This document shows positions 17,100 to 64,000 of a stretch of DNA of 64,000 nucleotides, piece after piece. Each line of letters opens with the position of its first letter. Position 1 is the stretch's first letter. Where the stretch lies: assembly GCA_014860625.1 (NCBI GenBank), contig JACZJJ010000022.1:11887-75886 (forward strand), given 5' to 3'. Position numbers and translations under genes: made by a program. Source of the stretch: Bacteroidales bacterium (GTDB lineage: Bacteria > Bacteroidota > Bacteroidia > Bacteroidales > FEN-979). Under the pieces are notes generated by a model. That model was not told the DNA's origin. It did no database searches and saw nothing but the letters and a program-made list of their open reading frames with translations.

Positions 17100-17978
17100 A
17101 TGCAATACGATCCCATAAAACGCTCCCTCGGCTCAATTTTCAACAGAACACCATGGCTGCGGATCCTCTTTTACCACTTGCTTGATCTTCTGCTGCTGCG
17201 CACATGGCATGTGAAAAAGGCACTGAGACAGTGGGGAAAGAAACAGGAAAAAGGCTCAGGGCACAGAGCTCAGGGCACAGAAACATCCAGTCATCCAGCA
17301 ACCAGCGACCAGCAACAAGCCTCCCGGATCCTCGACGCCGGCTCCGGCTTTGGACAATACAGTTACTTCCTCTCACGCATGAGCCGTAGCCTGATGGTTG
17401 ATGCCGTGGATGTGAAGGAAGAGCAGATCGCCGACTGCAACCGGTTTTTTACATCCATCGGAAGATCCAATGTGCATTTCAGCGTTGCTGACCTGACAAC
17501 ATTCTCTAAACCAGCGACCTATGAACTGATCCTCTCCGTGGATGTGATGGAACACATTCTTGAAGATGAAGCCGTGTTCAGAAATTTTCACGCATCCCTG
17601 AAACCGGGAGGCATGGTGTTGATATCGACTCCTTCCGACCAGGGCGGGTCTGACGTGCACGATCATGATGAAGAGGAGTCGTTTATTGATGAACATGTAA
17701 GGGATGGATACAACATACAAGAGATTCAGGAAAAACTGAAACGCGCCGGGTTCGGGAAGACCGAAGCGCACTTCACTTACGGAAAGCCGGGTCAAACTGG
17801 CTGGAGACTCTCGATGAAGTATCCAATCAAGATGCTCAATGCCAGTAAACTCTTTTTCATCCTATTGCCGTTCTATTACCTGCTTACATTTCCATTTGCC
17901 CTGCTGTTCAATGCGTTTGATTTGTGGGGAAAGCATAAAACCGGGACAGGCCTGATTGTCAAAGCCTGGAAAGAGTGA
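17100..17978 (+). CDS. Class I SAM-dependent methyltransferase with repeat-derived insert
   Basis: ILDAGSGFG, DVMEHI, LKPGG. Confidence 0.88.
   Translation: MQYDPIKRSLGSIFNRTPWLRILFYHLLDLLLLRTWHVKKALRQWGKKQEKGSGHRAQGTETSSHPATSDQQQASRILDAGSGFGQYSYFLSRMSRSLMVDAVDVKEEQIADCNRFFTSIGRSNVHFSVADLTTFSKPATYELILSVDVMEHILEDEAVFRNFHASLKPGGMVLISTPSDQGGSDVHDHDEEESFIDEHVRDGYNIQEIQEKLKRAGFGKTEAHFTYGKPGQTGWRLSMKYPIKMLNASKLFFILLPFYYLLTFPFALLFNAFDLWGKHKTGTGLIVKAWKE
17253..17324 (+). repeat. In-frame composite array (GGCACAG-type, AGTCATCC-type, AGCAACC-type)
   Basis: Encodes GSGHRAQGTETSSHPATSDQQQAS immediately before SAM motif I. Confidence 0.85.
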
Positions 17979-18081
17979 GATAGTGAGCTCGTGAAATGGT
18001 GAACCGGAGCGAAGCGAAGCTCGGCGGAGCCAAATGGTGAAAGTCTGGATTTTATTTCGTATTTCGTAATTCGTAATTCTT
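17975..18081 (+). repeat. Octamer array with nested 28-bp element, then heptamer array (AwTTCGT)
   Basis: GTGAGATA GTGAGCTC GTGAAATG GTGAA[CCGGAGCGAAGCGAAGCTCGGCGGAGCC]AAATG GTGAA; ATTTCGT x2 AATTCGT AATTCTT. Confidence 0.85.
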
Positions 18082-18083
18082 AA

Positions 18084-19319
18084 TTGAATATTTCCTTCTA
18101 CATAGCCCGTCGTTACTTCAAATCCAAGAAGTCGCACAATGTCATCAATATCATTTCAATGATATCGGTAGCCGGGGTTACCATCGGTACCATGGCGCTG
18201 ATCGTAGTTCTGTCGGTATTTAATGGGTTTGAACAACTGGTGGTCTCACTCTTCAACTCCTTCAATCCCGACCTTGTTATTACCCTGCGGGAAGGCAAGA
18301 ATTTTCCCGCAACAGATATCCCTCAAAACCTTCTGAGAGAGATGCCGGGAGTTCTCAACCTGACTGAGGTGCTCGAAGAGAACGCACTGATGAAATACAA
18401 GGACAAACAGGCAATCGTTACCCTGAAAGGGGTGGGGGAGGAGTACCAGCGGATGACAGGCGTGGATACCATGATGGCCGAAGGGAGGTTCCTGCTTCAG
18501 AGCGGGGATTACAACTTTACTGTACTGGGCTATGGCGTGGCCTATTACCTGAATGCCAGTTTGCAAGACTATATCAACCCCATCACCATTTTTATCCCGT
18601 CCCGCACCCGGAAGATCGGAGGATCCCTGGATCAGGCATTTAACCAGGAGATTATCTTCCCCACCGGATATTTCTCTATTCAACAGGAGTTTGATGTAAA
18701 ATATGCCCTGATGCCGATCCGCTTTGTCAGGAAACTGCTCGACTATACCAACGATGTCACTGCCATCGAGATCCAACTGGCTGACGGGGCTGACAAGCGC
18801 AGGATTCAGCAACAGATCGAAGTAGCTGTAGGTGACAGATTCAGGGTGAAAAACAGGTTTCAGCAGCAGGAACTGTTGTATAACATCATGAAATCGGAGA
18901 AATATGCCATCTTCCTGATCCTGACCTTTATCCTTCTGCTGGCAACCTTCAATGTGGTGGGCTCTCTCTCCATGCTGATCCTCGATAAAAAGAAAGACAT
19001 AGCGGTACTTCAAAGCATGGGTGCTACCATGAAGCTGATCAAACGCATCTTTTTGACAGAGGGGTTGATGATCTCAGGTATCGGCGCTCTTTCCGGAATG
19101 TTCCTGGGTGGCGTTCTCTGCTGGATCCAGCAAACATTCGGGCTCATCCGGATGGGCGGCCCCAACAGCACGTTTGTGGTGGACAGCTACCCCATTCAGA
19201 TGCAACCACTTGACTTCCTGCTTGTCTTTATTACAGTGATGCTGATCGGATACCTGGCGTCATGGTATCCTGTCTATAATATCCGGAAAATCAACACCAC
19301 GCTGGTCAAGCTCGATTGA
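18084..19319 (+). CDS. LolC/E (FtsX-like) lipoprotein-releasing ABC permease
   Basis: FYIARRYFKSKKS, VLSVFNGFE, KKKDIAVLQSMGA; TTG start. Confidence 0.88.
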   Translation: MNISFYIARRYFKSKKSHNVINIISMISVAGVTIGTMALIVVLSVFNGFEQLVVSLFNSFNPDLVITLREGKNFPATDIPQNLLREMPGVLNLTEVLEENALMKYKDKQAIVTLKGVGEEYQRMTGVDTMMAEGRFLLQSGDYNFTVLGYGVAYYLNASLQDYINPITIFIPSRTRKIGGSLDQAFNQEIIFPTGYFSIQQEFDVKYALMPIRFVRKLLDYTNDVTAIEIQLADGADKRRIQQQIEVAVGDRFRVKNRFQQQELLYNIMKSEKYAIFLILTFILLLATFNVVGSLSMLILDKKKDIAVLQSMGATMKLIKRIFLTEGLMISGIGALSGMFLGGVLCWIQQTFGLIRMGGPNSTFVVDSYPIQMQPLDFLLVFITVMLIGYLASWYPVYNIRKINTTLVKLD

Positions 19320-19429
19320 CCACATACCATGCGAACCTCTTTCCGTTGATAAATGTTTGGCAATAAGACCGATTAATGACTTGATTTTATTAAATTTGTC
19401 CGTTGTAAAAACTCACAAAACCTAACAGT

Positions 19430-23338: not shown

Positions 23339-23375
23339 AACCAATCATCAAATAAAAACCAGAACCAAAACCAAC

Positions 23376-27215: not shown

Positions 27216-27217
27216 CA

Positions 27218-28060
27218 TTATTCTACCAGATGTTGTTTCTCCACCTGGATGATCTCTTTGGTTTCGCTGTTGAAAACAAAGGCAACCAGTGAAAGGTGGT
27301 CAGGATTCCAGCTATCGTTTATCGTATAAACATATGTGTTGGAATAGGTCAGGGTTGTATCTACTGCGTTTGTCACCTGCTCCCCGTATGTTCCGTTGAG
27401 GACAGCTCTCAGCATATCATTGAACACGTAGTTCTCGATATCGGGAACCGTTCCCACATTGGGGTCATTGTTTTTCTGCCACCCGACAATGCTGTCTTCA
27501 AGGATACAGACAGTGAGGTTATAGGCTCCCGGTAATTCTGAATGGAACGTTGTCTCAATGGTTGTATTGATGTGATGACGGCTTAGGGGAGTATACTCTG
27601 TGGTGATACGGATGGACGCCACCTCATTTTCCTGAGCGACGCTGGCAACAGCCTCAGCCCAGGATCCGGATCCGATTGCCGGTTTCCCATTGTAGGGAGC
27701 CCGGTTGACCATCCCCATCGGGTTGGATATCAGTAAAAAATCGTTGAACCAGGAAACACCTTCTGTCACACGGTAATCTGTCGAATAGTGACCGGATGCG
27801 TCCGGCTCGGAAAAATATCCGGCATGAACTGTCATTAAAATAACCTGTCCTTTGTAGAGATCTACCAGGGCTTCTGCATCTGCTGTTGCAGCCGGACAGT
27901 TAACACACTTCATCCCCGTATAATCTTCCAGAAGAACTTTCCGCTTGTTGGTGTCGAGCACAATCACTTTCTCACTGGAATAAGGTTGATCCAACTTATC
28001 GCAGGAAACCACCAGGATACCTGCCAGTGCCATCATTAAATATAAAACCCTGAATTTCAT
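27218..28060 (-). CDS. Omp28-family lipoprotein (CxxC)
   Basis: Lipobox VVSC; KVLLEDYTGMKCVNCP. Confidence 0.85.
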   Translation of the reverse strand: MKFRVLYLMMALAGILVVSCDKLDQPYSSEKVIVLDTNKRKVLLEDYTGMKCVNCPAATADAEALVDLYKGQVILMTVHAGYFSEPDASGHYSTDYRVTEGVSWFNDFLLISNPMGMVNRAPYNGKPAIGSGSWAEAVASVAQENEVASIRITTEYTPLSRHHINTTIETTFHSELPGAYNLTVCILEDSIVGWQKNNDPNVGTVPDIENYVFNDMLRAVLNGTYGEQVTNAVDTTLTYSNTYVYTINDSWNPDHLSLVAFVFNSETKEIIQVEKQHLVE

Positions 28061-28070
28061 ATTCTTATAT

Positions 28071-28119
28071 TTTCTTAATTTCCTAATTTCGCTTTTCGCT
28101 TCTCGCTATTTCGCTATTT
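28071..28119 (-). repeat. Heptamer array (AnnAGCG) plus octamers (TTAGGAAA)
   Basis: 28087-28111 is the exact reverse complement of 44792-44816. Confidence 0.85.
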
Positions 28120-28123
28120 AATT

Positions 28124-29845
28124 CTAGAAACTGCTATTGATTGTCAAGGTGAACCCTGTTGATTCAGGTACGTAGCGGCAAACACCTCCTACGCACACAA
28201 CACCTTCGCGCTGACGTCCGTAGGAAAGGGCAATGCGGGTTGTATTGTAGATAAAGCCTGCTGAGAAATTGTAATAATGTAACTGAAGATTCGAAACGGG
28301 GTTTCCGATGTTCCACTGATCACTGACAGAGATAAACCATTTTGGAGAGATTGTCAGCTCCAGCATTCCTGCCATCCAGTTCCCTTTATCCTGTTTTGCC
28401 CACAAACCCTGTACTTCTCCGCGAATGGAGTACTTTTTAGTGATGTTCCATGTAATATCCACCACACCGATATTGGCATAAACAGTTCCATATTCGTCGA
28501 GATGCCCTTCGATCACATCTTTGTTGTAGGTTTGATAGTAGTATGCAAAAATTCCTTTCCATTTCTTATTGAACTTCTTCGTCACTTCAATATTTACATC
28601 CTGGTAGAAGACGTCTTTCCAATCCACTGCAAAAGGAGTCGATTTGTATCCAAGTGTTCCCGGTGTATTAATAGCTGTTGTATCATTGACTTGTGAACGT
28701 TTGATGTTGTTCACCTGAGAAAAGTTGATGGCAAAGTTCATTCCGTACTTGCCCCCAAGTTTGGAGTTTTTGGGGAGGGAAAAAATCAGCTCTGCAGACG
28801 CTCCGACCTCTCCGGTAGGCTGGGTGGCATACGGATACATAGCTGCAAGGAAATAGGTGTGTTCTTTTGTGACAGCGGGGAGGTAATTAATATCGAGTGC
28901 ATTGTTCGTGACCGAACGGTTGGATTTATAACTCATGTTATCAATCCATTTGGTTTTAGCCGTCAACCCGAAATTTTTACGGGAATAGGAAGCCGTTAAC
29001 AGCCATCCGTCGCCATTTTTGTAAATATAGTGGTTCATGGCTGAGGGATCGTTGATCTTGTGGGCGTATTCCGTATAGAAGTTGAACCCACTGTAATTTA
29101 GGTTGAGCCGACCGCCATAGGTAGCCACATTCTCAGGAAGGTTGAGTTCGTAGATTTTGGGAGGGACCACAATCTCCATTGATTTTCCTTTCTGGAAATC
29201 GCTCACAAAGCTTCCTCCAAAGCTAAGTTTAAATTTTGACGAGGAGAGGCTCGAAATCATGTCGTTGAGGTAAAAATCGGCATCCAGCCCTTTTACAATA
29301 CCCCTGTTATTGTCCTTGAAGGGAACCCAGTAGGTACGCTGAACGCCCACCACTCCTGTGATGGCGACACCGCTAAAGGGCGTCAGTTTAACCCTCAATC
29401 CGCGCATGGAGTTGTCATAGCCAAGAGTCCAGTCCTGGTAAGTCCTGAAAATCATTCCGTTTCCAAACTGTTCATAGAAATTACCAGCTGTCACCTCAAT
29501 CAGTTTGTTTTTGTATTTCACATACCAATAAGGAACTCCATACCCCTGGTACTCCTGGTCATATCCGAGAAGAGGAGGAAGGTACGCCTCAAATCTGAGT
29601 CCCGCAGAAAAGTTCTTGTAAGAGTAGTTGACATCAGTAAATCCCTGCACCCGGAAATATTTCCCGTCGAGGGTCGAGTCTGTGATGCCCAGCTGGCTGT
29701 CGGTCATGTAGTAAACCGCATCACTCTGAAAACTTCCGCTAATCTGACTGTTTTCCAGGAACCCTTGTCCAAACAACATCACAGGCACCGAAAACAATAC
29801 AACGATAAGCCCTTTTAACATGGCTTCTCTTTTCATAGATCGCAT
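28124..29845 (-). CDS. DUF6029-like outer-membrane beta-barrel protein
   Basis: GNFYEQFGNG, YGRQREGVVCVGGVCRYVP, C-terminal Phe; lies between tlpA and omp28. Confidence 0.72.
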   Translation of the reverse strand: MRSMKREAMLKGLIVVLFSVPVMLFGQGFLENSQISGSFQSDAVYYMTDSQLGITDSTLDGKYFRVQGFTDVNYSYKNFSAGLRFEAYLPPLLGYDQEYQGYGVPYWYVKYKNKLIEVTAGNFYEQFGNGMIFRTYQDWTLGYDNSMRGLRVKLTPFSGVAITGVVGVQRTYWVPFKDNNRGIVKGLDADFYLNDMISSLSSSKFKLSFGGSFVSDFQKGKSMEIVVPPKIYELNLPENVATYGGRLNLNYSGFNFYTEYAHKINDPSAMNHYIYKNGDGWLLTASYSRKNFGLTAKTKWIDNMSYKSNRSVTNNALDINYLPAVTKEHTYFLAAMYPYATQPTGEVGASAELIFSLPKNSKLGGKYGMNFAINFSQVNNIKRSQVNDTTAINTPGTLGYKSTPFAVDWKDVFYQDVNIEVTKKFNKKWKGIFAYYYQTYNKDVIEGHLDEYGTVYANIGVVDITWNITKKYSIRGEVQGLWAKQDKGNWMAGMLELTISPKWFISVSDQWNIGNPVSNLQLHYYNFSAGFIYNTTRIALSYGRQREGVVCVGGVCRYVPESTGFTLTINSSF

Positions 29846-29866
29846 CCTATTTTGGTTTCTATTAGA

Positions 29867-30397
29867 TTACTCTTCGATGGTTTCGCCGGCATTCAGCTTT
29901 CTGACCAGTTCAATCAGATGGACCTCATTTCCTTCCGTATAAGAAGAGTGCTGCCAGACAATATTTCCCTCTCCGTCAATTAGAAACGTATGCGGAGGAA
30001 ATCCAACATTCATAGCACGCTTGAAGTCTTCGTTCGGGTCACGAAGTACTTCATATTCCCATCCTTTACCGTTAACTGTTGGTTCAACGGTAGCGCTGGA
30101 GCGGGAATTATCGACGGAGACAGCTACCAGTTTTACACCGGTTTCTTCTACCCAATCGTCATATACATCAGCAATGGCACTCAGCTCTTTGATGCAGGGC
30201 TTGCACCAGGTCGCCCAGAAGCAAAGGATGATAGGCTTCCCGTCATTGTTGATACTGCTCGTATTGAATGGATTCCCCTGAAGATCTTGAATATCAACAG
30301 ACGGAATCTTTTTATTGCTTTCGGGAGCGGTTTCCTGGGCTATTCCTGTCCATACAAAAAGGAGAAGCGCCAAAAGAGTCGTAATGGTTCTTTTCAT
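29867..30397 (-). CDS. TlpA-family thiol-disulfide oxidoreductase
   Basis: FWATWCKPC; signal peptide; TATCTTTG at 30427-30434 on the minus strand. Confidence 0.9.
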   Translation of the reverse strand: MKRTITTLLALLLFVWTGIAQETAPESNKKIPSVDIQDLQGNPFNTSSINNDGKPIILCFWATWCKPCIKELSAIADVYDDWVEETGVKLVAVSVDNSRSSATVEPTVNGKGWEYEVLRDPNEDFKRAMNVGFPPHTFLIDGEGNIVWQHSSYTEGNEVHLIELVRKLNAGETIEE

Positions 30398-30438
30398 GGT
30401 TGATTTTCAGTTTGGTTAAGAGCGTGCAAAGATAAGGA

Positions 30439-31419
30439 TTATGGATAGTAAATCTCCAAAAGTTTCGTTTTTGGCTTTGGAAGAATGAAGAGATGATCAA
30501 TGGTGGCAGGGATCAGGATGACTTCCCCTTTTTTTAGCTCCTCCATCCCTTGCAAAAACTGGATGCTGCAACTTCCGCTGGTGCAAAGATAGATGATAAA
30601 TGAGTCGATGTACTCCAGATCCTTTTTAATGCCATGATCCAACTCCAGGATATTTGTGGTGAATGCTGTACTCTCAACCAGGTTTACGGTTTGATTCTTC
30701 AGCTTTGCATAGGTCGTGCGGTAGTTATCAGGTATGGTGAAATCAATGGCTTCAAGAGCCAGGTCGGTATGGAGTTCCCTTGACTTTCCTTCGCCGTCGG
30801 TCCGGTCCCAGTCATAAATCCTGTAAGTGGTATCGGAAGTTTGCTGGATCTCAGCAAGCAGAACGCCAGGCCCCAACGCGTGAACCCTACCCGCTGGCAT
30901 GAAAAAAACATCCCCTGCATGAACAGACTCCACATTCAGGATCTCCTTCAGTCGCTTCTGCTCAAGGTAATCCAGGTAGATTTTTTGATTCACGGATTGG
31001 TTGAAACCGCTGATCAGTTCGGCCTTCTTATCCGCATCCAGGATATACCACATCTCAGTCTTTCCGTTGCCGATCTTCCGTTTTGCGGCCAGGGCATCAT
31101 CCGGATGGACCTGGATGGAGAGCCAGTCGTGGGAGTCAATAAACTTTACAAGGATCGGGAACTTTTCTGGAAACTGCTCGAATGCTTTCTCGCCAACCAG
31201 ATCGTCCATATAGATTTCAACCAGGTCGTTCAACTCATTTCCTTCAAGAAATCCGTTGGAAACGACAGTCTGAAATCCTTCAACTCCGGAGAGTACCCAA
31301 ACTTCCCCGCAGTTGGGAAGAGGGGAGAAGTCGAGACCCAATTCAGTGCGAATTTTATCACCACCCCACACTTTATCTTTAAAGATGGGCGTGAATTTCA
31401 ATGGATAGAGCAAGTTCAT
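30439..31419 (-). CDS. manA: Mannose-6-phosphate isomerase, class I
   Basis: VWGG, LSIQVHPDD, GKTEMW, EIQQTSDTTYRIYDW; start reassigned to MNLLYP. Confidence 0.9.
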   Translation of the reverse strand: MNLLYPLKFTPIFKDKVWGGDKIRTELGLDFSPLPNCGEVWVLSGVEGFQTVVSNGFLEGNELNDLVEIYMDDLVGEKAFEQFPEKFPILVKFIDSHDWLSIQVHPDDALAAKRKIGNGKTEMWYILDADKKAELISGFNQSVNQKIYLDYLEQKRLKEILNVESVHAGDVFFMPAGRVHALGPGVLLAEIQQTSDTTYRIYDWDRTDGEGKSRELHTDLALEAIDFTIPDNYRTTYAKLKNQTVNLVESTAFTTNILELDHGIKKDLEYIDSFIIYLCTSGSCSIQFLQGMEELKKGEVILIPATIDHLFILPKPKTKLLEIYYP

Positions 31420-31495
31420 GACAGATGTAGCAGTTACTCGATTAATGACTACTTTTACAGACTGATTGTAAGGCAAAGGTATACTTTTATCTATT

Positions 31496-32647
31496 ATGGC
31501 GACTCCCACGATTTCATATCTCAATAAAATACAAGAACTTAGAAAAGAACTTCACCAGTACCCTGAATATTCAGGCAGAGAAAAGAAGACAGCTGCCAGA
31601 GTTCTCCAGTTTTGTTCAGCTTTTCAGCCTGATGTTGTGATTGAAAGATTGGGAGGGAATGGTTTTGCTTTGGTTTTTGAAGGAGCTCTGGATGGGAAAA
31701 CTGTAATGCTCAGAGCGGAACTGGATGCATTGCCTCTGGATGAGGTCATTGATATTCCGCACCGCTCCCGAAACAAGGACCTTGCGCATAAATGCGGCCA
31801 CGACGGACACATGGCAATTCTCTGCGGGGTTGCTTCGCTGTTGCAGAAGAAGCGACCTAAAGCCGGAAGAATTGTACTTCTTTTTCAACCTGCTGAAGAG
31901 ACGGGAAAAGGATCAAAGGCAGTGTTGAAAGACCCCAAATTCCAGGGTATCGTACCCGATTATGTTTTTGCATTGCATAATCTTCCCGGATTTCCTGCAG
32001 GATCGGTCATCGTTAAAAATGGCCCGTTTGCCTTTGCATCTCTTGGCATCTTCACCCGGATCAAGGGGGAGTCGTCGCACGCAGCGTTTCCGGAACACGG
32101 AATATCCCCGCTTCCTGCATTGATGGAGCTGCTTGGCACACTTCAGGAACTTCCCAAAAACATTCCCAATCTTCACAAGGATACCATTCTAACCATTACC
32201 TACAGTCGTTTGGGGCACTTTGTGTTTGGAACCTCCCCGGGGCAGGCCGAACTGGCAGCCACCATACGATCGGAACGAAACGAGGACATTGAGAAGATCA
32301 AGGATACAATCATTCCTGTCATCAGGGAGATCGGAATCCGCTATATGCTGGATACGATAATTCAATGGCATGAACCTTTCAGTGCCACAGTAAATACCCC
32401 TGAGGCTGTTACCATGATCCGGTCTGCTGCGCGAAAACTGGATTTCCCTCTGGTGGAGAGAAATGACCCTTTCCGCTGGTCAGAAGATTTTGGCGAGTTT
32501 ACCGCAAAATATCCGGGAGCGATCTTCGGACTGGGTTCAGGGGAGAATCACTCCGATCTCCATACACCGCACTATGACTTCCCGGATGAGATCATCGAAC
32601 CCGGGATCCGGATGTTCTATGAGATAATCAACCAGATAAACAGATGA
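31496..32647 (+). CDS. M20 family amidohydrolase
   Basis: LHQYPE, RAELDAL, HKCGHDGH, FQPAEE, SEDF. Confidence 0.9.
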   Translation: MATPTISYLNKIQELRKELHQYPEYSGREKKTAARVLQFCSAFQPDVVIERLGGNGFALVFEGALDGKTVMLRAELDALPLDEVIDIPHRSRNKDLAHKCGHDGHMAILCGVASLLQKKRPKAGRIVLLFQPAEETGKGSKAVLKDPKFQGIVPDYVFALHNLPGFPAGSVIVKNGPFAFASLGIFTRIKGESSHAAFPEHGISPLPALMELLGTLQELPKNIPNLHKDTILTITYSRLGHFVFGTSPGQAELAATIRSERNEDIEKIKDTIIPVIREIGIRYMLDTIIQWHEPFSATVNTPEAVTMIRSAARKLDFPLVERNDPFRWSEDFGEFTAKYPGAIFGLGSGENHSDLHTPHYDFPDEIIEPGIRMFYEIINQINR

Positions 32648-32651
32648 TTTC

Positions 32652-35431: not shown

Positions 35432-35488
35432 GGTAATCGGTTTGAATTTCAATAGGGGAGGTGCAAAATCGTGCAAAAGTAATTTTTT

Positions 35489-35523
35489 ATTTCTAATTTC
35501 GAATTTCCAATTTCATATTTCCA
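35489..35523 (+). repeat. Heptamer array (ATTTCnn)x5
   Basis: ATTTCTA ATTTCGA ATTTCCA ATTTCAT ATTTCCA. Confidence 0.8.
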
Positions 35524-35542
35524 TTCAAATTAACTAAGCCTC

Positions 35543-36037: not shown

Positions 36038-36053
36038 ATCATTATCTTTACAC

Positions 36054-36608
36054 GTGAACAAGGATCCAAAGGGGATGCCCAATGCCTTAGATAAAACGGA
36101 ATTTGAACGGCTGTTCAAAAATGAGTTCAAAGGACTCGTGCTGTTCTCCATTCAGTATGTCAAGGATTACGAAGCGGCCCGGGAAATTGTGCAGGAGGCA
36201 TTCATTGGTTTATGGGACAAGAGAAGTCAGATCGATCCCGCAAGACAGGTAAAAAGCTACCTCTCCACGACTGTCAGAAACCGCTCCCTGAACTACCTGC
36301 GGGATAACAGGAAATTTGATACCCGCCTTCTTACCCAGGAAAATCTTTTCCCTCTTGCATCGTACGAACAAACAGACAACCTTGTGGTAAAGGAGCTTCA
36401 GGATAAAATCCATGAAGCCGTTTCGGAACTGCCGGAAAGATGCCGGGAGGTATTTTTACTCAGCAGAAATGAACACCTCAAATACCAGGCAATTGCCGAT
36501 AAACTCCAGATTTCGGTTAAAACCGTGGAGACCCAGATGTCGAAAGCACTGCAACACCTCCGAATCCGGTTGAAGGATTACCTCCCATCAGGGTATCCCT
36601 CAACTTAA
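36054..36608 (+). CDS. ECF RNA polymerase sigma-70 factor (FecI-like)
   Basis: EIVQEAFIGLW, LPERCREVFLLSR, ISVKTVETQMSKAL; start may be ATG 36075. Confidence 0.9.
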   Translation: MNKDPKGMPNALDKTEFERLFKNEFKGLVLFSIQYVKDYEAAREIVQEAFIGLWDKRSQIDPARQVKSYLSTTVRNRSLNYLRDNRKFDTRLLTQENLFPLASYEQTDNLVVKELQDKIHEAVSELPERCREVFLLSRNEHLKYQAIADKLQISVKTVETQMSKALQHLRIRLKDYLPSGYPST

Positions 36609-36627: not shown

Positions 36628-37836
36628 ATGAACACAAACGACACATATTACACTGACCTGATCACCCGGTACCTTTCAGGAGAGGCTTTGCCGGAAGAGA
36701 TTTCGGAGCTTTCATCCTGGATTGGTTCCAACCCCGAACACGCAACTCTTTTTAGCGAGTTCAGGAAAACATGGGAAAGTATTACTGCCGACCAGGTTGA
36801 GCAACAGTTAGATCCGTCGAAGGAGTGGGAAGTTCTGCTGCCCAAACTGAAAGGAATTGGGGCTCAGGGCACAGGGCCAGGGGCACAGGGCCAAGGGCAC
36901 AGGGCACAGGGCACAGGGCCAAAACAAGAGGGTTCAGGGCACAGAGCACAGGGCTCAGGGCTCAGGGCGAAGGCTCCGGGTCAAAAGGCACCGGACATCG
37001 AATCCTGGGATCCGGCATCCGGTATCCGGCATCTGGCATCCGAGAAGGAACCAAAGGTCATCCAGATGGAGAGCAACCGGCTCCCCTGGCAGGTGGTCAT
37101 GATCAGGGCCTCCCTCATTGCTGCCATTGCATTGGTACTTCTGATTCCTGCCTGGATGACATACCACTATTTTTCAGCAACTGACATGGTTCGGCTTACC
37201 GCCTCCGGTGAAGTCCTTGAGGCAGTACTTCCTGACGGTACAACGATATCTCTGAATGCTTATGCGTCAATCTCTTATCCTGAAAACTACGGGATAAATA
37301 ACCGTGAAGTCATACTAAACGGACAGGGTTATTTTGAGGTAAACAGGGACTCTCTGCTGCCTTTTGTCATTACCTGCGGCAGTTCAAAACTTGAAGTGCT
37401 GGGAACCTCCTTCTTTGTCGACGCCGAACAGGCCGCTGGAAATATGGAGGTCGTTCTGGTTGACGGAAGCGTGGCGGTCTATTTTGAGGATGCCCGCTCC
37501 ACCGGCAAAACAATCATTCCCGGAGAAAAAGCAAAACTGATCCAGACGGATCAGCGTATCATCATCTCGCCCAACGAAGACCCCAACTTCATGGCATGGA
37601 AGACACACAACCTCATTTTTCTTGACGACAGGCTGGATATGATCCTCACCACCCTGAACAAAATCTATCAATCCAATATCACCCTGGCGAATGAAAACCT
37701 GGCTGACTGCCGCCTCACAGCTACTTTCAGCCAGCAGTCGCTGGAATCGGTACTCAGCGTGATCGGGGTTACGCTGGACCTTCAGTCTGAAACCACACCT
37801 TCCGGTATCATCCTCTACGGGAAAGGATGCAACTAA
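36628..37836 (+). CDS. FecR-family anti-sigma factor with about 60-aa repeat-derived insert
   Basis: LITRYLSGE N-domain, TM helix, LPDGTTISLN, GQGYFEV, VLGTSF. Confidence 0.9.
   Translation: MNTNDTYYTDLITRYLSGEALPEEISELSSWIGSNPEHATLFSEFRKTWESITADQVEQQLDPSKEWEVLLPKLKGIGAQGTGPGAQGQGHRAQGTGPKQEGSGHRAQGSGLRAKAPGQKAPDIESWDPASGIRHLASEKEPKVIQMESNRLPWQVVMIRASLIAAIALVLLIPAWMTYHYFSATDMVRLTASGEVLEAVLPDGTTISLNAYASISYPENYGINNREVILNGQGYFEVNRDSLLPFVITCGSSKLEVLGTSFFVDAEQAAGNMEVVLVDGSVAVYFEDARSTGKTIIPGEKAKLIQTDQRIIISPNEDPNFMAWKTHNLIFLDDRLDMILTTLNKIYQSNITLANENLADCRLTATFSQQSLESVLSVIGVTLDLQSETTPSGIILYGKGCN
36860..37042 (+). repeat. In-frame heptamer arrays (GGGCACA-type, 16 periods; ATCCGGC-type)
   Basis: Register unbroken 36860-36971; encodes GAQGTGPGAQGQGHRAQG...DPASGIRHLAS. 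Confidence 0.93.
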
Positions 37837-40526: not shown

Positions 40527-41344
40527 TGAAGAAATCAATACGATATATCGCCCTGATACTACTGCTCACTGGTTGCGTAAAGCAGGCAGACTGGCCTGTT
40601 CCCGATCAATCACCGGAATTTATTGTTGTGGATGCCACCCTTACGGATGAGCAAAAGGTTCATACCGTCTCAATCAATCTCCCGGTTACAGATCTTAATG
40701 CAATCCCGGAAGCCGTGACCGGAGCAACTGTACTGATAGCCACCGCTGATTCGTTGTGGTTTCTGAACGAAGATTCCCTCCGTCCCGGGAACTACCTGAC
40801 CGACTCTTCTTTCGTTGCCACCCTTAATACAGGATATTCGCTGCAGATCCTCTGGCACGAAAAAAACTATTCGGCACAAACTTCTATGGTACCGGGTAGA
40901 GTTTTCAATCCATTGATCTATAAAAAGAATGAAGGAGATGATGCCTATCATATCGATTGGGTAGCTTCCGCATTTAGCGTGAACGACCCGGCCATGTGGG
41001 AGGTGTTTGTTGACTGGTCGGCTCTTCCCGGCTATGACACGCTGGATCCCTGCTCCTGTCAGGCCAGGTTGCTTTTTTATACCCTCCCTACCATTGATGT
41101 TAGCCAGATATTTGCTCCCATTGTTGAACAAATCTCTTTCCCTGCCGGCAGCCTCATTACCGAACGTCGCTTTTCCGTCACGCCGGATCATGCGGAGTTT
41201 CTCAGGCAACTTCTGCTGGAGACCAACTGGCAGGGAAGCATGTTCCCTTCGGCAAATGCCAATGTAATCACAAACCTGAGTTCAGGAGCTATTGGTTACT
41301 TCAGCGTGTGCGCTGTAACGGAGCTGTCGCTGGTGGTGGAGTAG
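40526..41344 (+). CDS. DUF4249-like lipoprotein
   Basis: Lipobox LTGC, IVVDATLTD, TNLSSGAIGYF; coupled to the TonB-dependent receptor. Confidence 0.7.
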   Translation: MKKSIRYIALILLLTGCVKQADWPVPDQSPEFIVVDATLTDEQKVHTVSINLPVTDLNAIPEAVTGATVLIATADSLWFLNEDSLRPGNYLTDSSFVATLNTGYSLQILWHEKNYSAQTSMVPGRVFNPLIYKKNEGDDAYHIDWVASAFSVNDPAMWEVFVDWSALPGYDTLDPCSCQARLLFYTLPTIDVSQIFAPIVEQISFPAGSLITERRFSVTPDHAEFLRQLLLETNWQGSMFPSANANVITNLSSGAIGYFSVCAVTELSLVVE

Positions 41345-41417
41345 GGCACAGGGCACAGGGCACAGGGCACAGGGCGCAGGGCACAGGGCACGTATCCGGC
41401 ATCTGGCATCCGGCATC
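41343..41417 (+). repeat. Heptamer arrays (AGGGCAC)x7 then (ATCCGGC-type)x3
   Basis: Same two-part order as the FecR insert; 41392-41412 identical to 37022-37042. Confidence 0.93.
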
Positions 41418-44752: not shown

Positions 44753-44760
44753 GTAAAAAT

Positions 44761-44902: not shown

Positions 44903-44939
44903 ATATTGTCCAAATGTTAATCACTAAAATTACGAAAAA

Positions 44940-45314: not shown

Positions 45315-45315
45315 A

Positions 45316-45386: not shown

Positions 45387-45421
45387 TATTTAAGGGAGTC
45401 CCAAAGATTATTGTCGGGAAG

Positions 45422-46258: not shown

Positions 46259-46401
46259 GACAAAAAGAATTAGATTGCAGGTGTAAAGTTCTGCGAAAAT
46301 TCGTTAAAAAAGGCGTTTCGGGGATATAATTAGAAAAAATTCATAGCTTTATGCTCCTTTTACCAAGAAACCAATCCAGTATATCCATTAACTAAACTAT
46401 C

Positions 46402-49203: not shown

Positions 49204-49208
49204 TGGAG

Positions 49209-49245
49209 AGGATGGTTCGACCCGTGATTGGGGTCGAACCATCCT
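49209..49245. terminator. 15-bp perfect stem between convergent genes (terminator or REP-like)
   Basis: AGGATGGTTCGACCC-N7-GGGTCGAACCATCCT. Confidence 0.6.
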
Positions 49246-49253
49246 GTTATTTG

Positions 49254-53510: not shown

Positions 53511-53580
53511 AAAACATAGAATGTATGTTAGTGTCAAATATACAAAATAATTAGGGAAAAATTATAAATTGTTGAAAAAA

Positions 53581-55473: not shown

Positions 55474-55503
55474 TGGTCATTAATGTTTATTTACCCCAAA
55501 CTC

Positions 55504-55593
55504 ACCCCCAAACCCCCTGAAGGGGGCTTACTCTGCTTCGCAGTTTTACCCTCCCGGAGGGAGGAGTAAGTCCCCTTCAGGGGATTTAGGGGT
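55504..55593. repeat. Branched palindromic element (CCCCCTGAAGGGGG...CCCCTTCAGGGG)
   Basis: Outer inverted arms, inner hairpins CTGCTTCGCAG and CCCTCCCGGAGGG; supplies the stop of the upstream gene. Confidence 0.7.
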
Positions 55594-56719
55594 ATATCTC
55601 CACCACCGCTCCTTCTTTCGCTTTCGCATACCCCCGAAACATTGCATTGGTGTTGAAGGGCATCGCGATATTTCCATCTTTGTCAACAGCGATCAGGCCG
55701 CCACCGCCTCCCTGCGATTTCAGTTTATCCCGGATGAGGTAGTTTGTCGCCTCTTCCAGAGACCAATCCCGGTACTCCATCAGTGCGGAGACATCATAGG
55801 CGATCACATTCCGCATGAAATATTCGCCTGTACCGGTGCAGGAAACCGCACAGGTAGCATTATTTGCGTAGGTTCCTGCCCCAATGATCGGGGTGTCGCC
55901 AATCCTCCCTTTCATTTTCATCATCAGTCCCCCGGTAGAGGTTGCCGCTGCCAGGTTGCCCATGTTATCCAGGGCAACAGCACCCACAGTCCCTTTGGTG
56001 TTGTCATCCTTCATGCTCACGGTATCGGGCCGAGAATCCTTTTTCTCTTTGATTGTATCTGATTTGCTTCGCTGCTGCTCTTTCATCCGCTCGTATTGTT
56101 TCGTTCTGGCCGGGGTCTGAAAATAGGAACGGTCAACCATTTCGAGTCCCTGTGCCTGTGCGAAAAGATCGGCTCCTTCGCACATCAGAAGAACATGCCG
56201 TGTTTCAGTCATCACCAGCCGGGCGGCCGACACCGGATGCCGTATGGTGGTTACACCAGTTACCGCACCAGCCATCAAGGTACTCCCATCCATGATGGAG
56301 GCATCCATTTCGGCATATCCTTCATCGTTGTACACAGCGCCTTTCCCGGCATTGAAGAGGGGGCAGTCCTCCATAAACATCACCACGGCTTCCACGGCTT
56401 CCATACTGCTTCCTCCCTTTTCCAGGATGCCTGTTCCCACCGCAAGGGCTTCATTGAGTTTATCTTTGTATGCCTGTTCTTGCTCCTCCGACATCGATCC
56501 CTGGGGAGGTCCGCCGGCCCCCCCGTGGATGACCAGAACCCAGTTGCCCGGATGAAAGCCTGGTTGTCCGGTCCCGGATGCCTGATCCCGGATGCCGGAT
56601 GCCGGATCGGGGAGAGGTGTAATGGAAACATCCTGGCTGAAACCTGTTGAGCTGAAAAGTAACGGAATTAATAGCATCAGAAAGCCGCCAAATCCTGGTA
56701 TTTTACATGTCTTTTTCAT
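55586..56719 (-). CDS. Isoaspartyl peptidase / L-asparaginase (Ntn hydrolase), secreted
   Basis: VIHGGAG, FNAGKG, GTVGAVA, ATSTGG, GRIGDTP. Confidence 0.9.
   Translation of the reverse strand: MKKTCKIPGFGGFLMLLIPLLFSSTGFSQDVSITPLPDPASGIRDQASGTGQPGFHPGNWVLVIHGGAGGPPQGSMSEEQEQAYKDKLNEALAVGTGILEKGGSSMEAVEAVVMFMEDCPLFNAGKGAVYNDEGYAEMDASIMDGSTLMAGAVTGVTTIRHPVSAARLVMTETRHVLLMCEGADLFAQAQGLEMVDRSYFQTPARTKQYERMKEQQRSKSDTIKEKKDSRPDTVSMKDDNTKGTVGAVALDNMGNLAAATSTGGLMMKMKGRIGDTPIIGAGTYANNATCAVSCTGTGEYFMRNVIAYDVSALMEYRDWSLEEATNYLIRDKLKSQGGGGGLIAVDKDGNIAMPFNTNAMFRGYAKAKEGAVVEIYP
56568..56609 (-). repeat. In-frame heptamer array (GCATCCG-type)x6
   Basis: Encodes DPASGIRDQASGT between signal peptide and enzyme. 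Confidence 0.8.
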
Positions 56720-56726
56720 TTCCTAA

Positions 56727-56803
56727 TTTTCAAATTTCATATTTCATATTTCGTCCTTCGTCCTTCTTCCTTCTTCCTTCTTCCTTCTTCCTTCGTCCCT
56801 CGT
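56727..56803 (+). repeat. Heptamer array x11 changing from ATTTCAT to CCTTCTT
   Basis: TTTTCAA ATTTCAT x2 ATTTCGT CCTTCGT CCTTCTT x4 CCTTCGT CCCTCGT. Confidence 0.9.
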
Positions 56804-56805
56804 CC

Positions 56806-57588
56806 TTACCCGATCAAAGCCCTGAACAGCTCCTTAAAATCCACCATCCCTGTCACCTTCAACGCTGCCAGGATCACGGAAGCCACGATGACCCACCGGA
56901 TAAATTTACCACCTTTTTTAATAGCCATCACGCTGGCGATGTAGGCTCCGGCAATACTGCCGATTGACAGCAATATCCCGTACAGGTAATACACCTGATC
57001 GCTGAGGATAAAGATCACCAGCGAAACGGCTGCCGAGAAGAGGATCACCAGGTTTTTGACGGCATTCGCCTTTACCAGTTCGAAGCCAACACCCAGCACC
57101 AATGCCATCAGCAGGAAATAGCCCACGCCCACCTGCAGGAAGCCGGCGTAAGCTCCCACTCCGAAGAAGAGAAGTACCTGCCACCATTGAATCTTCTTCT
57201 CCAGGAAGGCCGTGTTCTCCTTCATCCATCGTTCAGGCTTTGCAAAGATGAAGACCAGCATAAAAGCCATCACGATTACCATCGCAATCTCCAGGGCTTC
57301 CGGTTTGATCCCGGTAGCGAGCCATGCTCCGGCAAGCGACCCTACGGTAGCCGGTCCGACAAGCCACCAGATCTTGCGGGTGGTGAACATCTTGTTGCGC
57401 CAGAATGTGGTCACCGACGTGCTTGTCTGGAAAAAAACACTCACCCGGTTGGTCCCGTTGGCAATGGTGGCCGGAAGCCCAAGGATCAGCAAAAGTGATA
57501 AAGAAATCACGGATCCTCCCCCGGCGAGGGTGTTGATGAAGCCAACCAGTACGCCGGCTAAAATGATGATCAGGTACTCAACAATCAT
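56806..57588 (-). CDS. TauE/SafE family exporter
   Basis: GFINTLAGGGS, ANGTNR, YAGFLQVGVG. Confidence 0.88.
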   Translation of the reverse strand: MIVEYLIIILAGVLVGFINTLAGGGSVISLSLLLILGLPATIANGTNRVSVFFQTSTSVTTFWRNKMFTTRKIWWLVGPATVGSLAGAWLATGIKPEALEIAMVIVMAFMLVFIFAKPERWMKENTAFLEKKIQWWQVLLFFGVGAYAGFLQVGVGYFLLMALVLGVGFELVKANAVKNLVILFSAAVSLVIFILSDQVYYLYGILLSIGSIAGAYIASVMAIKKGGKFIRWVIVASVILAALKVTGMVDFKELFRALIG

Positions 57589-57791
57589 AACGCTCTTAGA
57601 TGATGATTTGCAGTGCAAACAGAATAGGAAGTCAAAAATAAGAAATCAAATCTGATAACACGACGATTATTGGTTTTTGTACCTATATACAAATAAGTAA
57701 TATTTAATTAGAATAAATAAGAATAAATAGCGTACCTTTGCCAGAGTATGATTTTATCCAAACGATTTTTTATTCACCTAATATCTTTCTC

Positions 57792-60842: not shown

Positions 60843-60964
60843 TGTTATAAATAAAAGTTATCTGAGTAGTCTGTTTCACATTGGACCATACTGCTATGTC
60901 CAGGCAGGAGCCTGAAAGCAGGGGGGATCCATCAGCTCCGGTCCTTAAACCGTGACTCTGTTTT

Positions 60965-62023: not shown

Positions 62024-62048
62024 AGATAATCAGTTAAAAGCACGCATG

Positions 62049-63176
62049 TCAATGGCCTGATTGTCCGCTTGTCAGCAGGCAATAATAGGGGTAAATGGAA
62101 TGGTTTTCCCACACGTTAAAGGGCTCGGGATTTACAGGGAATTTCGCGAAATAAGATGAATCCGGTATCAACGGAATGGTAATACCCATTCGCACAAAAT
62201 CGTAGGATTTCATTGTTTCCGGCTCAACGAATTGCGGCAAAGCCTCGTGAATCTTTGGAGAAACGATCTCCCTTACGACATTGAGCAAGAATTCTACTGT
62301 TCCCGGAATCAGCTTGGAGTATTGTTCAAAACCAGCGTCGAACTTGGGGCCGGGAGGGTAATGACTCATGATGAAAAAAGCATGGATATCGGTGTATGGA
62401 CTTAAAGGTGGTTCGTCGGTTGAGTTTTGTACAGTGGGCGGCACCGTGGGGACCCAGTCAACGACATTCTGGATGGAAAACGCCCTCCCTCCGCTGGTCA
62501 GGTTTTCGTAGTCATAGGCATACCAAAGGTTCCCCGATTTCATATTGGCAACGCAGTAGGTCTTGAATCGAATGTCTGAGGGTAGTTTTCCATCTTTCTG
62601 CAAGTAGAGCAGATAAGAGGTGGCGAGATTGGCAAGACCGCTTCCCTGGCTGTGCCCCAGGATGTAAAAATCACGGATCCCGTCCTGGTACAGAAGGTCG
62701 ATCTGACTGAGGATGTCCGTTGCCATGCAGCCCAACCCGAGCAGCAGTCCGAGATGTACTCCGGCGCCTTGTATTTCTGCCAGTTTATATTCAAAGGTAT
62801 TTGAATCTGAGATTTTCACCGTGCCGGACGCAGGAACCATGAGGGTATAAAACGCTGCGGCAAAACTCATTCCTGCAGGGTCAAGAATGGTCCCCCGGAT
62901 GCTGATCAACCCCTTCCCGTCGTCGGATTGCCAGATATCAAAACGGTTCTTCAGAGGGCTTTCGGGCGACCGGTATTTCATGGTGTAATGAACCGGGGCC
63001 GGTGTTTTAAAATTGCCCAGATCGGTTGAATCATAGGTCCGTTCGATGACAGGCAGCAACGAGATCAGTTCTGTTTTATCATACCCGGGCACAAGGGAAA
63101 CGCTCTTGGGCTGTTGACAGGAGTAGAGTATAAACAGGCTAAACAAAGCCTGAGAAAGAATGAGATACTTTTTCAT
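62049..63176 (-). CDS. Class 3 lipase-like lipoprotein
   Basis: Lipobox LYSC, ISIRGT, GHSQG, DWVP, ENH. Confidence 0.8.
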   Translation of the reverse strand: MKKYLILSQALFSLFILYSCQQPKSVSLVPGYDKTELISLLPVIERTYDSTDLGNFKTPAPVHYTMKYRSPESPLKNRFDIWQSDDGKGLISIRGTILDPAGMSFAAAFYTLMVPASGTVKISDSNTFEYKLAEIQGAGVHLGLLLGLGCMATDILSQIDLLYQDGIRDFYILGHSQGSGLANLATSYLLYLQKDGKLPSDIRFKTYCVANMKSGNLWYAYDYENLTSGGRAFSIQNVVDWVPTVPPTVQNSTDEPPLSPYTDIHAFFIMSHYPPGPKFDAGFEQYSKLIPGTVEFLLNVVREIVSPKIHEALPQFVEPETMKSYDFVRMGITIPLIPDSSYFAKFPVNPEPFNVWENHSIYPYYCLLTSGQSGH

Positions 63177-63337
63177 AAAATCAGGGATTTAAGATCCAAA
63201 GATAATCGGATTATCCATCAATAATAACGGATGTGAAAAATAATTTCTGGGGTGCTTTTCCTTAAGGATTAGTCTGATTTACAAGTACATGAACTTTTAA
63301 TGTACCGTTGTTCCGGTAGAACATTGGCCATATGAGG

Positions 63338-63552
63338 TCATCCCGGCTGAATAAAAAGCAATCCGATATAAACAGTCAATAACAGAATAAAGGATAACGC
63401 CAGGGGTTACTGCAGCCGTTTTGAACCATTGAACAGACCGACCAGTGAAAGAATGACGAATAGAACACGGATCCAGCCATATCTGTATCAGGCTTAACTT
63501 CAGGAAGCAGTAAATAGCTTGACATGGATGCCATAAGTAAAATACCCACCAT
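63338..63552 (-). pseudogene. Possible degraded membrane-protein remnant
   Basis: Hydrophobic segments split by a frameshift and an in-frame stop. Confidence 0.25.
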
Positions 63553-63563
63553 TAAACTTTTTC

Positions 63564-64000
63564 TTAGTCTTTAGCCTTTCGCAGCTTACTATGCCTCACT
63601 CCAAAGGTAAAATAAATCGCCAGTCCAATCAACAGCCAGATGCCAAACCGAAACCAGTTGGTGGTGCCAAGTTGAGCCATCAGGTAAAGATTGGTCAGCA
63701 ACCCAAGAACAGGGATCAGCGACCATTGTTTCCAGATGCCAAAGGCCGTGATGATGATGGCGATAACGATGAAAAGCAGGATAGGGATTTCGTGATAGGT
63801 CAGATCCCGGATCCCGGATCCCGGATCCCGGATCAGTGAAGGATCAACATAAAAAAGTAAGATCCCGATTCCCACCCAGATCACAGGAAGAAAATAGCGT
63901 GTATTCAGATAAGGGATGTGAAACTCTTTCTTGTCGGGAGGTGCAATGCGCCCTTTGCCTCGCTCGTCGAGAACCAGCACACCGCCCGAAACCAGGACAA
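63564..64000 (-). CDS. C-terminus of an APC-family amino acid permease (partial)
   Basis: SLIPVLGLLTNLYLM, WFRFGIWLLIGLAIYFTFG..HSKL. Confidence 0.8.
   Translation of the reverse strand, partial: VLVSGGVLVLDERGKGRIAPPDKKEFHIPYLNTRYFLPVIWVGIGILLFYVDPSLIRDPGSGIRDLTYHEIPILLFIVIAIIITAFGIWKQWSLIPVLGLLTNLYLMAQLGTTNWFRFGIWLLIGLAIYFTFGVRHSKLRKAKD
63803..63834 (-). repeat. In-frame perfect heptamer array (GATCCCG)x4+
   Basis: Encodes IRDPGSGIRD in a loop between TM helices. Confidence 0.9.

Follow-up and report, generated by a model that had tools for sequence, protein, structure and literature searches.

Background

Heptanucleotide units repeated head to tail are known from several groups of bacteria, the heptamer repeats of cyanobacteria going by the name STRR. 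Here we describe such arrays in a 64,000 nt stretch of DNA (hereafter the window) from an uncultured Bacteroidales genus, FEN-979 (GenBank assembly GCA_014860625.1, contig JACZJJ010000022.1, positions 11,887 to 75,886 of the forward strand), where they lie inside the open reading frames (ORFs) of four unrelated proteins: a methyltransferase, a FecR-type anti-sigma factor, an asparaginase and an amino-acid permease. The explanation we favor, and to which we assign a probability of roughly 0.72, is that the four inserts are ordinary heptanucleotide simple-sequence repeats (SSRs), of the kind described as long SSRs (LSSRs) or STRRs, which are carried as tolerated passengers and turn over locally.

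LSSRs have units of 5-11 nt, among which heptanucleotides are the commonest, and show a sporadic distribution; slippage has been proposed as their origin, and units in multiples of three are regarded as those likely to occur in coding regions (Mrazek 2007 as summarised in PMC4679880). Measured against that summary, the arrays described here are similar in consisting of head-to-tail 7-nt units, in being far more numerous than expected by chance, in lying mostly outside genes, and in being phylogenetically sporadic. They differ in that 175 of the 687 heptamer arrays of the genome lie deep within ORFs and in frame, and in that the lineage is an uncultured genus of Bacteroidales.

The heptamer repeats of cyanobacteria, Xanthomonas and Beggiatoaceae, with units such as GGGNATC and TAACTGA, pile up beside start and stop codons, and a few Bacteroidetes are already listed among the carriers; a unit bearing a stop codon is tolerable only at gene ends, and the reverse orientation gives a repeating heptapeptide (PMC4692102, PMC4679880). 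The G-rich heptamers of Xanthomonas and Nostoc are under-represented within coding DNA (PMC4692102). The present arrays resemble these in being distributed across the genome and enriched next to start and stop codons. In those studies one or a few units are considered and are found to be under-represented in genes, whereas the present genome has 121 canonical units, with its coding copies documented through orthologs.

A translated heptanucleotide repeat is also found in neuO of the E. coli K1 prophage CUS-3, where full-length translation requires that the number of AAGACTC repeats be divisible by three, and where the gene is out of frame in 42 of 64 genomes (PMC13001214). As far as the published account of neuO extends, the likeness lies in a heptanucleotide repeat within a coding sequence, with a reading frame bound to multiples of three. 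That repeat, however, is made up of 3-53 perfect units, sits at the 5' end of a single gene, and turns it on and off within populations (PMC13001214), unlike the arrays described here, which are short and mostly imperfect, occur in over 100 genes, and are in frame in each relative that could be read. Rickettsia palindromic elements (RPEs) are about 150 bp long, fall into defined families, each with a conserved peptide, and behave as insertions of MITE (miniature inverted-repeat transposable element) type (PMC10969869). To the extent that RPEs are characterized there, both involve repeat DNA found in frame within unrelated genes, including metabolic ones, and apparently compatible with protein function, but in the present arrays the 7-nt unit is the only consensus, and neither a palindrome nor shared ends were found. 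In Geobacter metallireducens, 49 elements of four heptamer units (GGACCGG x4) occur within and between genes (PMC2700814); these differ, in the description given of them, in having a single unit and a fixed length, and were interpreted by their authors as regulatory RNA elements (PMC2700814).

In the literature searched, no description of in-frame heptamer arrays on a proteome scale was found for Bacteroidota, and the treatment of SSRs in coding regions in PMC3315296 covers mono- to trimeric units only. The arrays are a further member of the known class of heptanucleotide SSRs, at an unusual scale, and show no sign of a special function. The points of interest are their turnover at the same sites and a coding property that is independent of reading frame.

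Heptamer arrays within four genes

Arrays were located using Tandem Repeats Finder (TRF), a heptamer array being one with a period of 7. A first-pass annotation of the window had reported in-frame heptamer arrays at positions 17253, 36860, 56568 and 63803, and TRF returned rows at each of these, with 3.7-15.6 copies per array (the first methyltransferase array was reported as two 14-mers). At lag 7 the inserts have a DNA identity of 0.56-0.90, while the best of the remaining lags gives 0.31-0.43. In the permease the array is perfect with only 4.6 copies, and the others match their consensus at 73-85%, except for the 14-mer row of the methyltransferase (100%). The reading frame is kept at all four sites, as had been claimed, each array lying inside one uninterrupted ORF with conserved sequence or a Pfam match on both sides, and the inserts are predicted to be translated in frame. 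The host proteins are indeed a methyltransferase dependent on S-adenosylmethionine (SAM), a FecR protein, an Asparaginase_2 protein and an APC permease, all with Pfam scores above the curated cut-offs. Their translations contain the peptides that had been quoted (KKQEKGSGHRAQG, KQEGSGHRAQG, DPASGIR and DPGSGIR), and the predicted placement in linkers or loops agrees with all four array stretches lying outside the matched Pfam domains. In FecR and the permease there are Pfam matches on both sides of the array; in the methyltransferase and the asparaginase the Pfam domain is downstream, and the upstream sequence is an N-terminal helix region conserved among orthologs, or a signal peptide, respectively.

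Each of the four proteins was searched against 30 relatives. Linker DNA was extracted by regular expression, and the comparisons rest on loci where the pattern matched, or otherwise on match lengths. In what follows, the genome itself is called G000 and its closest relative G005. The frame is kept in every ortholog that could be read across the four sites. Alignment to orthologs upheld the idea that the segments are lineage-specific, encoded by repeats and in frame, but in two cases a segment of comparable length also exists in orthologs with non-periodic DNA, namely the permease loop (in other genera) and the FecR linker (in G008 and G010), a situation that the first-pass annotation had named as refuting its reading and that holds here in part.

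If the genes had been mis-called, split or mis-assembled at the repeats, the arrays might not be translated at all. Assemblies do break at arrays, as in the methyltransferase of G005 (see below), and the gene starts used here are longest-ORF guesses. However, the conserved protein continues in frame on both sides of the arrays in independent assemblies of 7-8 species, the asparaginase signal peptide joins the mature domain via the array stretch with no start codon between, and the region is present in contigs from three separate sequencing runs of one study; for a 10-kb stretch in which the FecR gene lies, each run contains 58-96% of the words sampled. An artefact of this kind is considered very improbable.

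The methyltransferase gene (17100..17978, plus strand) encodes a class I enzyme of 292 aa, with two arrays in the linker before the Rossmann fold, and a match to Methyltransf_25 at residues 77-171 (49.4 bits against a cut-off of 27). The repeat-encoded stretch (17250..17324) corresponds to residues 51-75, KGSGHRAQGTETSSHPATSDQQQAS, with a lag-7 identity of 0.56 against 0.31. The first array (17254-17281) is the 14-mer in 2.0 copies, which represents two GCTCAGG/GCACAGA heptamer pairs (GGCTCAG/GGCACAG type), and the second (17295-17320) consists of CCAGCAA in 3.7 copies; KKQEKGSGHRAQG is found in the translation. In an AlphaFold2 model (13 orthologs), residues 54-72 are coil with a predicted local distance difference test score (pLDDT) below 50, between a helix (33-55) and the first Rossmann strand (76-80). 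Orthologs align on either side of the insert. The DNA between the WHVKK and DAGSGFGQ motifs is 66-114 nt long, heptamer-periodic and in frame in 8/8 readable genomes of the same genus, while in other genera of the family the same linker is 48-63 nt long and non-periodic (5/5). Among the best 80 loci in species-representative genomes, 69 have a match length of 804-822 nt, compared with 876 here. The units differ between species: GGCACAG and CCAGCAA in G000, CAGTTGG and ATCCNGG in both G008 and G004 (which have array types and length in common), GCATCGA and GCATCCA in G010, GGATACG and ATCNCGN in G006; in G003 and G002 the units are G-rich. The ATCC-type arrays adjoin a native ATCCT, which array-free orthologs also conserve, a point in favor of local processes. 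In the G005 gene (L035, G005:C8 about 55740-55880), a run of 100 N is found exactly at the array site, with the two halves of the gene in different frames; the repeat has probably left a gap in the scaffold here.

The FecR-type anti-sigma factor gene (36628..37836, plus strand; 402 aa) is preceded by a gene for an extracytoplasmic function (ECF) sigma factor (36054-36608) and followed by one for a TonB-dependent receptor (37827-40526). Its FecR domain is found at residues 191-282 (48.8 bits, cut-off 24) and FecR_C at 329-388 (42.3 bits, cut-off 24.4). The repeat-encoded linker (36853..37041, residues 76-138; lag-7 identity 0.63 against 0.34) is placed after the conserved N-terminal part and before the membrane helix, and carries two arrays in succession, GGGCACA in 15.6 copies at a 73% match (36860-36968), read as GHRAQGT, and ATCCGGC in 4.7 copies (37002/37010-37042), read as PASGIRH. 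Both KQEGSGHRAQG and DPASGIR are found in the translation. The linker is 63 nt, or nine units, longer in G000 than in G005. Orthologs of the same genus, together with relatives from a large protein collection, show other heptads at this site (GTGHRAQ, QPTTDNR, SSIQSPL, IRHPASE and ISNPKSQ), and frame is kept in 6/6 full-length copies of the same genus. In G008 and G010, which belong to the same genus, the linkers are of equal length and non-periodic, with a lag-7 identity of 0.23.

The two units of the FecR insert recur, in the same order, in a non-coding array at 41343..41417 (plus strand), where AGGGCAC in 7.0 copies is followed by ATCCGGC in 3.4 copies. The first unit overlaps the TAG stop codon of a DUF4249 gene (40526-41344). 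The presence of the FecR unit pair in a spacer indicates that coding and spacer arrays are one population. Another array (56750-56807) likewise has its end on a stop codon, that of a gene on the minus strand (56806-57618).

The gene for an isoaspartyl peptidase/L-asparaginase (55586..56719, minus strand) encodes 377 aa, beginning with a signal peptide and with Asparaginase_2 at residues 60-371 (E value 7e-113, 377 bits against a cut-off of 27). The repeat-encoded stretch (56564..56611) corresponds to residues 37-52, PDPASGIRDQASGTGQ, which includes DPASGIR and is placed between the signal peptide and the mature domain; its lag-7 identity is 0.68 against 0.36. TRF reported the array (56568-56607) as CCGGATG in 4.9 copies, the sense unit CATCCGG being a rotation of ATCCGGC. 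Seven orthologs of the same genus have heptad-like variants at this site, such as PASSIQHPASGIG and SSIQDPGSRIG, with frame kept in 7/7, while in four orthologs from other genera the signal peptide is joined directly to the mature domain and no such segment is present. Between G000 and G005 the stretch differs by 12 nt, compared with 63 nt for the FecR linker. A second array site occurs at the 5' end of the asparaginase gene in G005, G007, G004 and G010 (L002-L004 and L008), with arrays of ATCCGGC type in the opposite orientation that read IPDAGCR; these sit at the N-terminus of the signal peptide or shortly upstream of it.

The permease gene (minus strand) is represented in the window by its 3' part (63564..64000); the whole gene encodes an APC-family amino-acid permease of 575 aa and extends past the end of the window to window-equivalent position 65291. 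Pfam matches are to AA_permease_2 at residues 34-484 (174.9 bits against 27) and AA_permease_C at 525-568 (55 against 27). The array, GATCCCG in 4.6 copies (63803-63834), is placed between these two domains, in the loop between the core and the C-terminal helices, and the repeat-encoded stretch (63801..63836; lag-7 identity 0.90) reads LIRDPGSGIRDL at about residues 485-496, with DPGSGIR in the translation. All orthologs have this loop, which is 29 residues long here and 25-43 in the orthologs; its DNA is non-periodic (lag-7 identity 0.25-0.33) in 4/6 orthologs from other genera, and two other genera have different arrays in it, reading QHPASSIQD (G011) and GTGHRAQGAG... (G018). Since the loop length is within the range of the orthologs, the array has overwritten an existing loop without adding length. 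In G005 the array is of equal length with two substitutions, in a gene that differs at about 17% of bases. The G007 ortholog (G007:C91:6-1772) has one TGA inside an otherwise full-length match.

Heptamer tracts in coding sequence could in principle act as contingency loci, that is, as neuO-like switches turned on and off by the gain or loss of one unit. As the unit is no multiple of three, the frame shifts with each gain or loss of a unit, and the permease tract is perfect with 4.6 copies. Against this, the arrays are in frame in 8/8 methyltransferase (the ninth, G005, being the one with the N run), 6/6 FecR and 7/7 asparaginase orthologs of the same genus, and the permease array has kept its length in G005 despite the difference of about 17% at the base level. 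In the genome as a whole the arrays are short and mostly imperfect (17% of the deep set are perfect, with a median of 4.6 copies), and their hosts include housekeeping proteins (histidyl-tRNA synthetase, EPSP (5-enolpyruvylshikimate-3-phosphate) synthase and MutS) for which off states would be lethal or strongly harmful. These points argue against switching as the main role of the arrays, and contingency loci are an improbable explanation.

The array population of the genome

The genome assembly comprises 3.77 Mb in 171 contigs, in which TRF found 687 arrays of period 7 and 225 of period 8. A simulated genome of equal length, generated by a 5th-order Markov model, contained no period-7 arrays, and heptamer arrays are therefore not the product of chance. 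The 687 arrays are distributed as 285 intergenic, 158 straddling a gene end, 69 within a gene near its end, and 175 deep in an ORF, where deep means no closer than 150 nt to the 5' end of the ORF and no closer than 30 nt to its 3' end. An ORF and hexamer-based gene finder of our own predicted 2,936 genes, with 92% of the genome coding and 7.7% outside called genes. The 285 intergenic and 158 straddling arrays are concentrated in this 7.7%, against 175 deep arrays in the 92%. The deep arrays are found in 116 of the 2,936 predicted proteins (about 4%), and the four inserts of the window are local cases of this genome-wide load.

The set of 121 canonical heptamer units speaks for local processes: linking those that differ by a single substitution gives 244 edges compared with 126 +/- 11 in random sets (about 2x), and neighboring arrays are often one base apart in unit. 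The commonest unit of the genome is AACTGCC. Three successive copies of it (<=1 mismatch) were searched for in 151 genomes of the order, and gave 117 matches in G000, 54 in G060, 43 in G101 and 35 in G112, genomes from four different families; there were 1-4 matches in 8 further genomes and none in 139, and a reversed-pattern control gave 0 everywhere. Junctions between same-strand genes carry an array in 211 gene pairs, which are candidates for genes split by a frameshift. Array load varies several-fold within the genus, with 7 period-7 arrays in 111 kb of G005 and about 25 in the overlapping 64-kb window of G000. Loss of mismatch repair was considered as a cause of the load and rejected, as MutS_V and a MutL domain scored above cut-off in 5/5 genomes (G000, G005 and the three AACTGCC-rich genomes).

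Shared peptides and the arithmetic of frame

A given unit in a given orientation specifies the same cyclic heptapeptide in all three frames because 7 leaves a remainder of 1 when divided by 3. GGGCACA is read as GHRAQGT, ATCCGGC as PASGIRH, and ATCCGGG as DPGSGIR. Peptides shared by unrelated proteins are explained by the presence of the same unit in the same orientation, and no common inserted element is needed. The asparaginase array has the unit of the second FecR array, and the same orientation relative to its gene, so that DPASGIR is found in both proteins. The 175 deep arrays draw on a small repertoire of such heptapeptides, in which AVGSWQL (18x), ASGIRHP (14x) and DEGRRTK (9x) recur, and in the predicted proteome PASGIR is found in 8 proteins and QLAVGS in 16. 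When unrelated proteins of such genomes share peptides like GHRAQG or PASGIR, this does not point to homology, to domain shuffling or to a mobile element.

Arrays that persist in coding DNA

Array density is about 0.05 per kb in deep coding sequence, compared with 0.98 per kb in intergenic DNA, or 1.5 per kb if arrays straddling gene ends are included, which is a 20-30x deficit. Units free of stop codons on both strands make up 147/175 of the deep arrays and 171/285 of the intergenic ones, compared with 46% of random heptamers; in 174/175 deep arrays the unit is stop-free on at least one strand, and no stop codon occurs among the 2,268 residues encoded by the deep arrays. The coding deficit and the near absence of stops on the sense strand support a selective filter, and to this extent the earlier proposal that selection keeps stop-free, in-frame arrays stands. 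If arrays of the intergenic mix fell into genes in random orientation, about 74% would be stop-free and 1/3 of these would keep frame, an expected survival of about a quarter. The observed value is 3-5%, which would correspond to a further, roughly five-fold loss due to position in the fold.

The peptides of the deep arrays are enriched in R (x2.7), Q (x1.8), G (x1.7) and S (x1.6) relative to the proteome, and depleted in F (x0.2), M (x0.4) and L (x0.5), with N and Y also low. In a random 20 proteins with deep arrays, the array lies between or beside matched Pfam stretches in 10, for example in a C10 peptidase, in the linker that joins propeptide and protease, in the linker after a GH92 catalytic domain, and just before a type IX secretion system (T9SS) sorting domain. 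In the other 10 it lies inside a matched stretch (EPSP synthase, GH127_C, a PHP domain and DegT are examples), and in 8 of these 10 the stretch exceeds the span of its profile, as predicted for a loop insertion. Histidyl-tRNA synthetase and AnmK have arrays between matched parts of one domain. The mutS gene (G000:C9:1154-3721) carries an in-frame GGCACAG array at 3562-3590, just after the MutS_V domain.

Deep and intergenic arrays have units in common and are similar in copy number (medians 4.6 and 4.7) and in match (medians 89% and 90%). The idea that interruptions stabilise coding arrays was rejected, as the two classes are equal in copy number and in purity.

The repeat peptide, or the DNA or RNA itself, might instead be kept for a selected function, such as a flexible linker, a binding motif, or a nucleic-acid structure that regulates expression. 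Consistent with this, arrays persist at the same sites across the genus, and among the 147 deep arrays that are open on both strands the sense peptide is the more hydrophilic in 99 and the antisense in 48, with fewer Cys in the sense peptide in 57/73 informative cases. The hydrophilic orientation is, however, equally favored in non-coding arrays within 150 nt of genes (139 vs 65 downstream, 103 vs 36 upstream), and the same is true of the purine-rich strand, which is the gene-sense strand in 115 vs 59 deep arrays, 262 vs 164 downstream arrays and 192 vs 99 upstream arrays. Since the bias is also found in non-coding arrays, it belongs to the strand of the repeats, and peptide selection was rejected as its source on these grounds; the purine-strand bias could be related to transcription or replication. 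In addition, unit, length and peptide at a given site differ freely between species, which indicates that no particular sequence is conserved. A selected function is no more probable than switching as an explanation of the arrays.

Origin and turnover of the arrays

The presence, at all four sites, of arrays in relatives of the same genus, often with other units and lengths, is the pattern expected of local turnover and, judging from these orthologous sequences, the array sites are old and permissive. The most likely origin is local slippage, with repeated births at permissive sites, plus occasional copying by recombination and a preference for certain units. According to this scheme, replication slippage or unequal exchange would give rise to the arrays and drive their turnover in place. 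In coding DNA they are found only where unstructured residues are tolerated, as in linkers between domains, surface loops and the region after a signal peptide, and their persistence there requires a stop-free sense strand and a net length that keeps the frame. Translation, which is indicated by the continuity of the ORFs and conservation across species, would produce a low-complexity peptide rich in Arg, Gly, Ser and Gln and poor in hydrophobic residues, and proteins hit by one unit in one orientation, by simple arithmetic, share heptapeptides. The arrays have no demonstrated function of their own, and would be passengers that change the length of linkers and loops quickly between species.

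The alternative is a mobile cassette of RPE or MITE type, in which ready-made arrays reach new sites through transposition or through recombination with other arrays, and selection retains the in-frame, stop-free events. Three observations point in this direction. The same units, even in the same order, occur at unlinked sites, as in the FecR insert and at 41343-41417. Two Fib_succ_major paralogs (G000:C29:22525-26376 and 27535-31569), which share 77% DNA identity overall, have a near-identical CCCTCGT array with about 35 nt of each flank. The distribution of AACTGCC is also patchy, this unit being found in 12/151 genomes, four of them with 35-117 matches. However, the four insert regions contain no inverted repeats of at least 10 nt, and the best alignment between the methyltransferase and FecR inserts spans 21-23 nt, all of it repeat unit. 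The 121 different canonical units provide no element consensus of 100-150 bp, and there are no recurrent modules, the commonest of 127 adjacent unit pairs occurring only 3x; on this count GGGCACA followed by ATCCGGC was rejected as a moving module. A comparison of 961 flanks, from which periodic and palindrome-bearing ones had been removed, gave 200 similar pairs, and the 25 that were inspected trace to unrelated families of small repeats, few in number, and showed no end that the arrays share; target-site duplications would be indistinguishable from the repeat itself. The analogy with RPEs drawn in the first-pass annotation is not borne out, since there are no inverted repeats, common flanks or recurrent unit pairs, and the inserts share only the repeat unit. 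Insertion of mobile cassettes is considered unlikely, if somewhat less so than switching or a selected function.

Several points weigh against local turnover by slippage as a full account. At a given site, the arrays of G000 and G005 (about 80% DNA identity) usually have unrelated units, which is a poor fit to gradual mutation plus homogenisation and suggests repeated births at permissive sites, or replacement; this comparison covers 13/23 array clusters, mapped on five contigs, which are too few for indel statistics. Growth of coding arrays from single-copy seeds by whole units would add units in multiples of three; this is so in 47/89 deep isolated arrays and 96/227 non-coding ones, a weak trend (Fisher p = 0.10). 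In the paralog pair, the near-identical region extends over about 75 nt around the in-frame CCCTCGT array, suggesting local gene conversion or copying of the array with its short flanks, and hence that copying by recombination occurs at least sometimes. The amplification of AACTGCC in four distant families, with its patchy distribution, is not explained by pure local chance. The gene calls come from a crude finder with longest-ORF starts, and the counts of deep arrays are approximate. The sequencing runs listed with the locus are three DNA runs of one bioreactor metagenome study, with no RNA run. No conspecific strain was found, a scan of metagenome contigs for FecR giving relatives of at most 36% identity, and in a search of 5.8 billion proteins the FecR of the window was alone in its 90% cluster, the next match being 68% identical.

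Consequences for linker and loop evolution

Beyond being tolerated, heptamer slippage could act in this lineage as a standing generator of new linker and loop sequence, with repeated births at permissive sites followed by decay to non-periodic linkers, such as those of FecR in G008 and G010. We propose this tentatively, and think it somewhat doubtful. Heptamer arrays would be uniquely tolerable as generators because internal slips leave the heptapeptide unchanged, and only the exit frame matters. If this is true, a measurable share of the evolution of linker length in these Bacteroidales, including that of essential enzymes such as histidyl-tRNA synthetase (HisRS), AroA and MutS, would come from one mutational process, and this process would favor a certain set of units, found again in families that are not related.

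Units that are not a multiple of three are usually deemed to be excluded from genes or to act as switches, but here more than 100 proteins, some of them essential, tolerate them as predicted translated loops. Differences in protein length between close species at array sites represent repeat turnover, and at arrays genes will come out broken or mis-framed from assembly and gene calling. The arrays with different units at the same site across the genus provide a natural experiment on the insertions that a fold tolerates.

Other repeats near the arrays

A palindrome resembling repetitive extragenic palindromic (REP) sequences, GGGCGGGTT(TGG/CCA)AACCCGCCC, has 59 copies in the genome, none of them in the window. 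Of these copies, 45 are outside called genes, and 19 of the 59 are within 80 nt of a heptamer array; the palindrome is one of the small repeats behind the similarities between array flanks. Two more short dispersed repeats also occur in array flanks.

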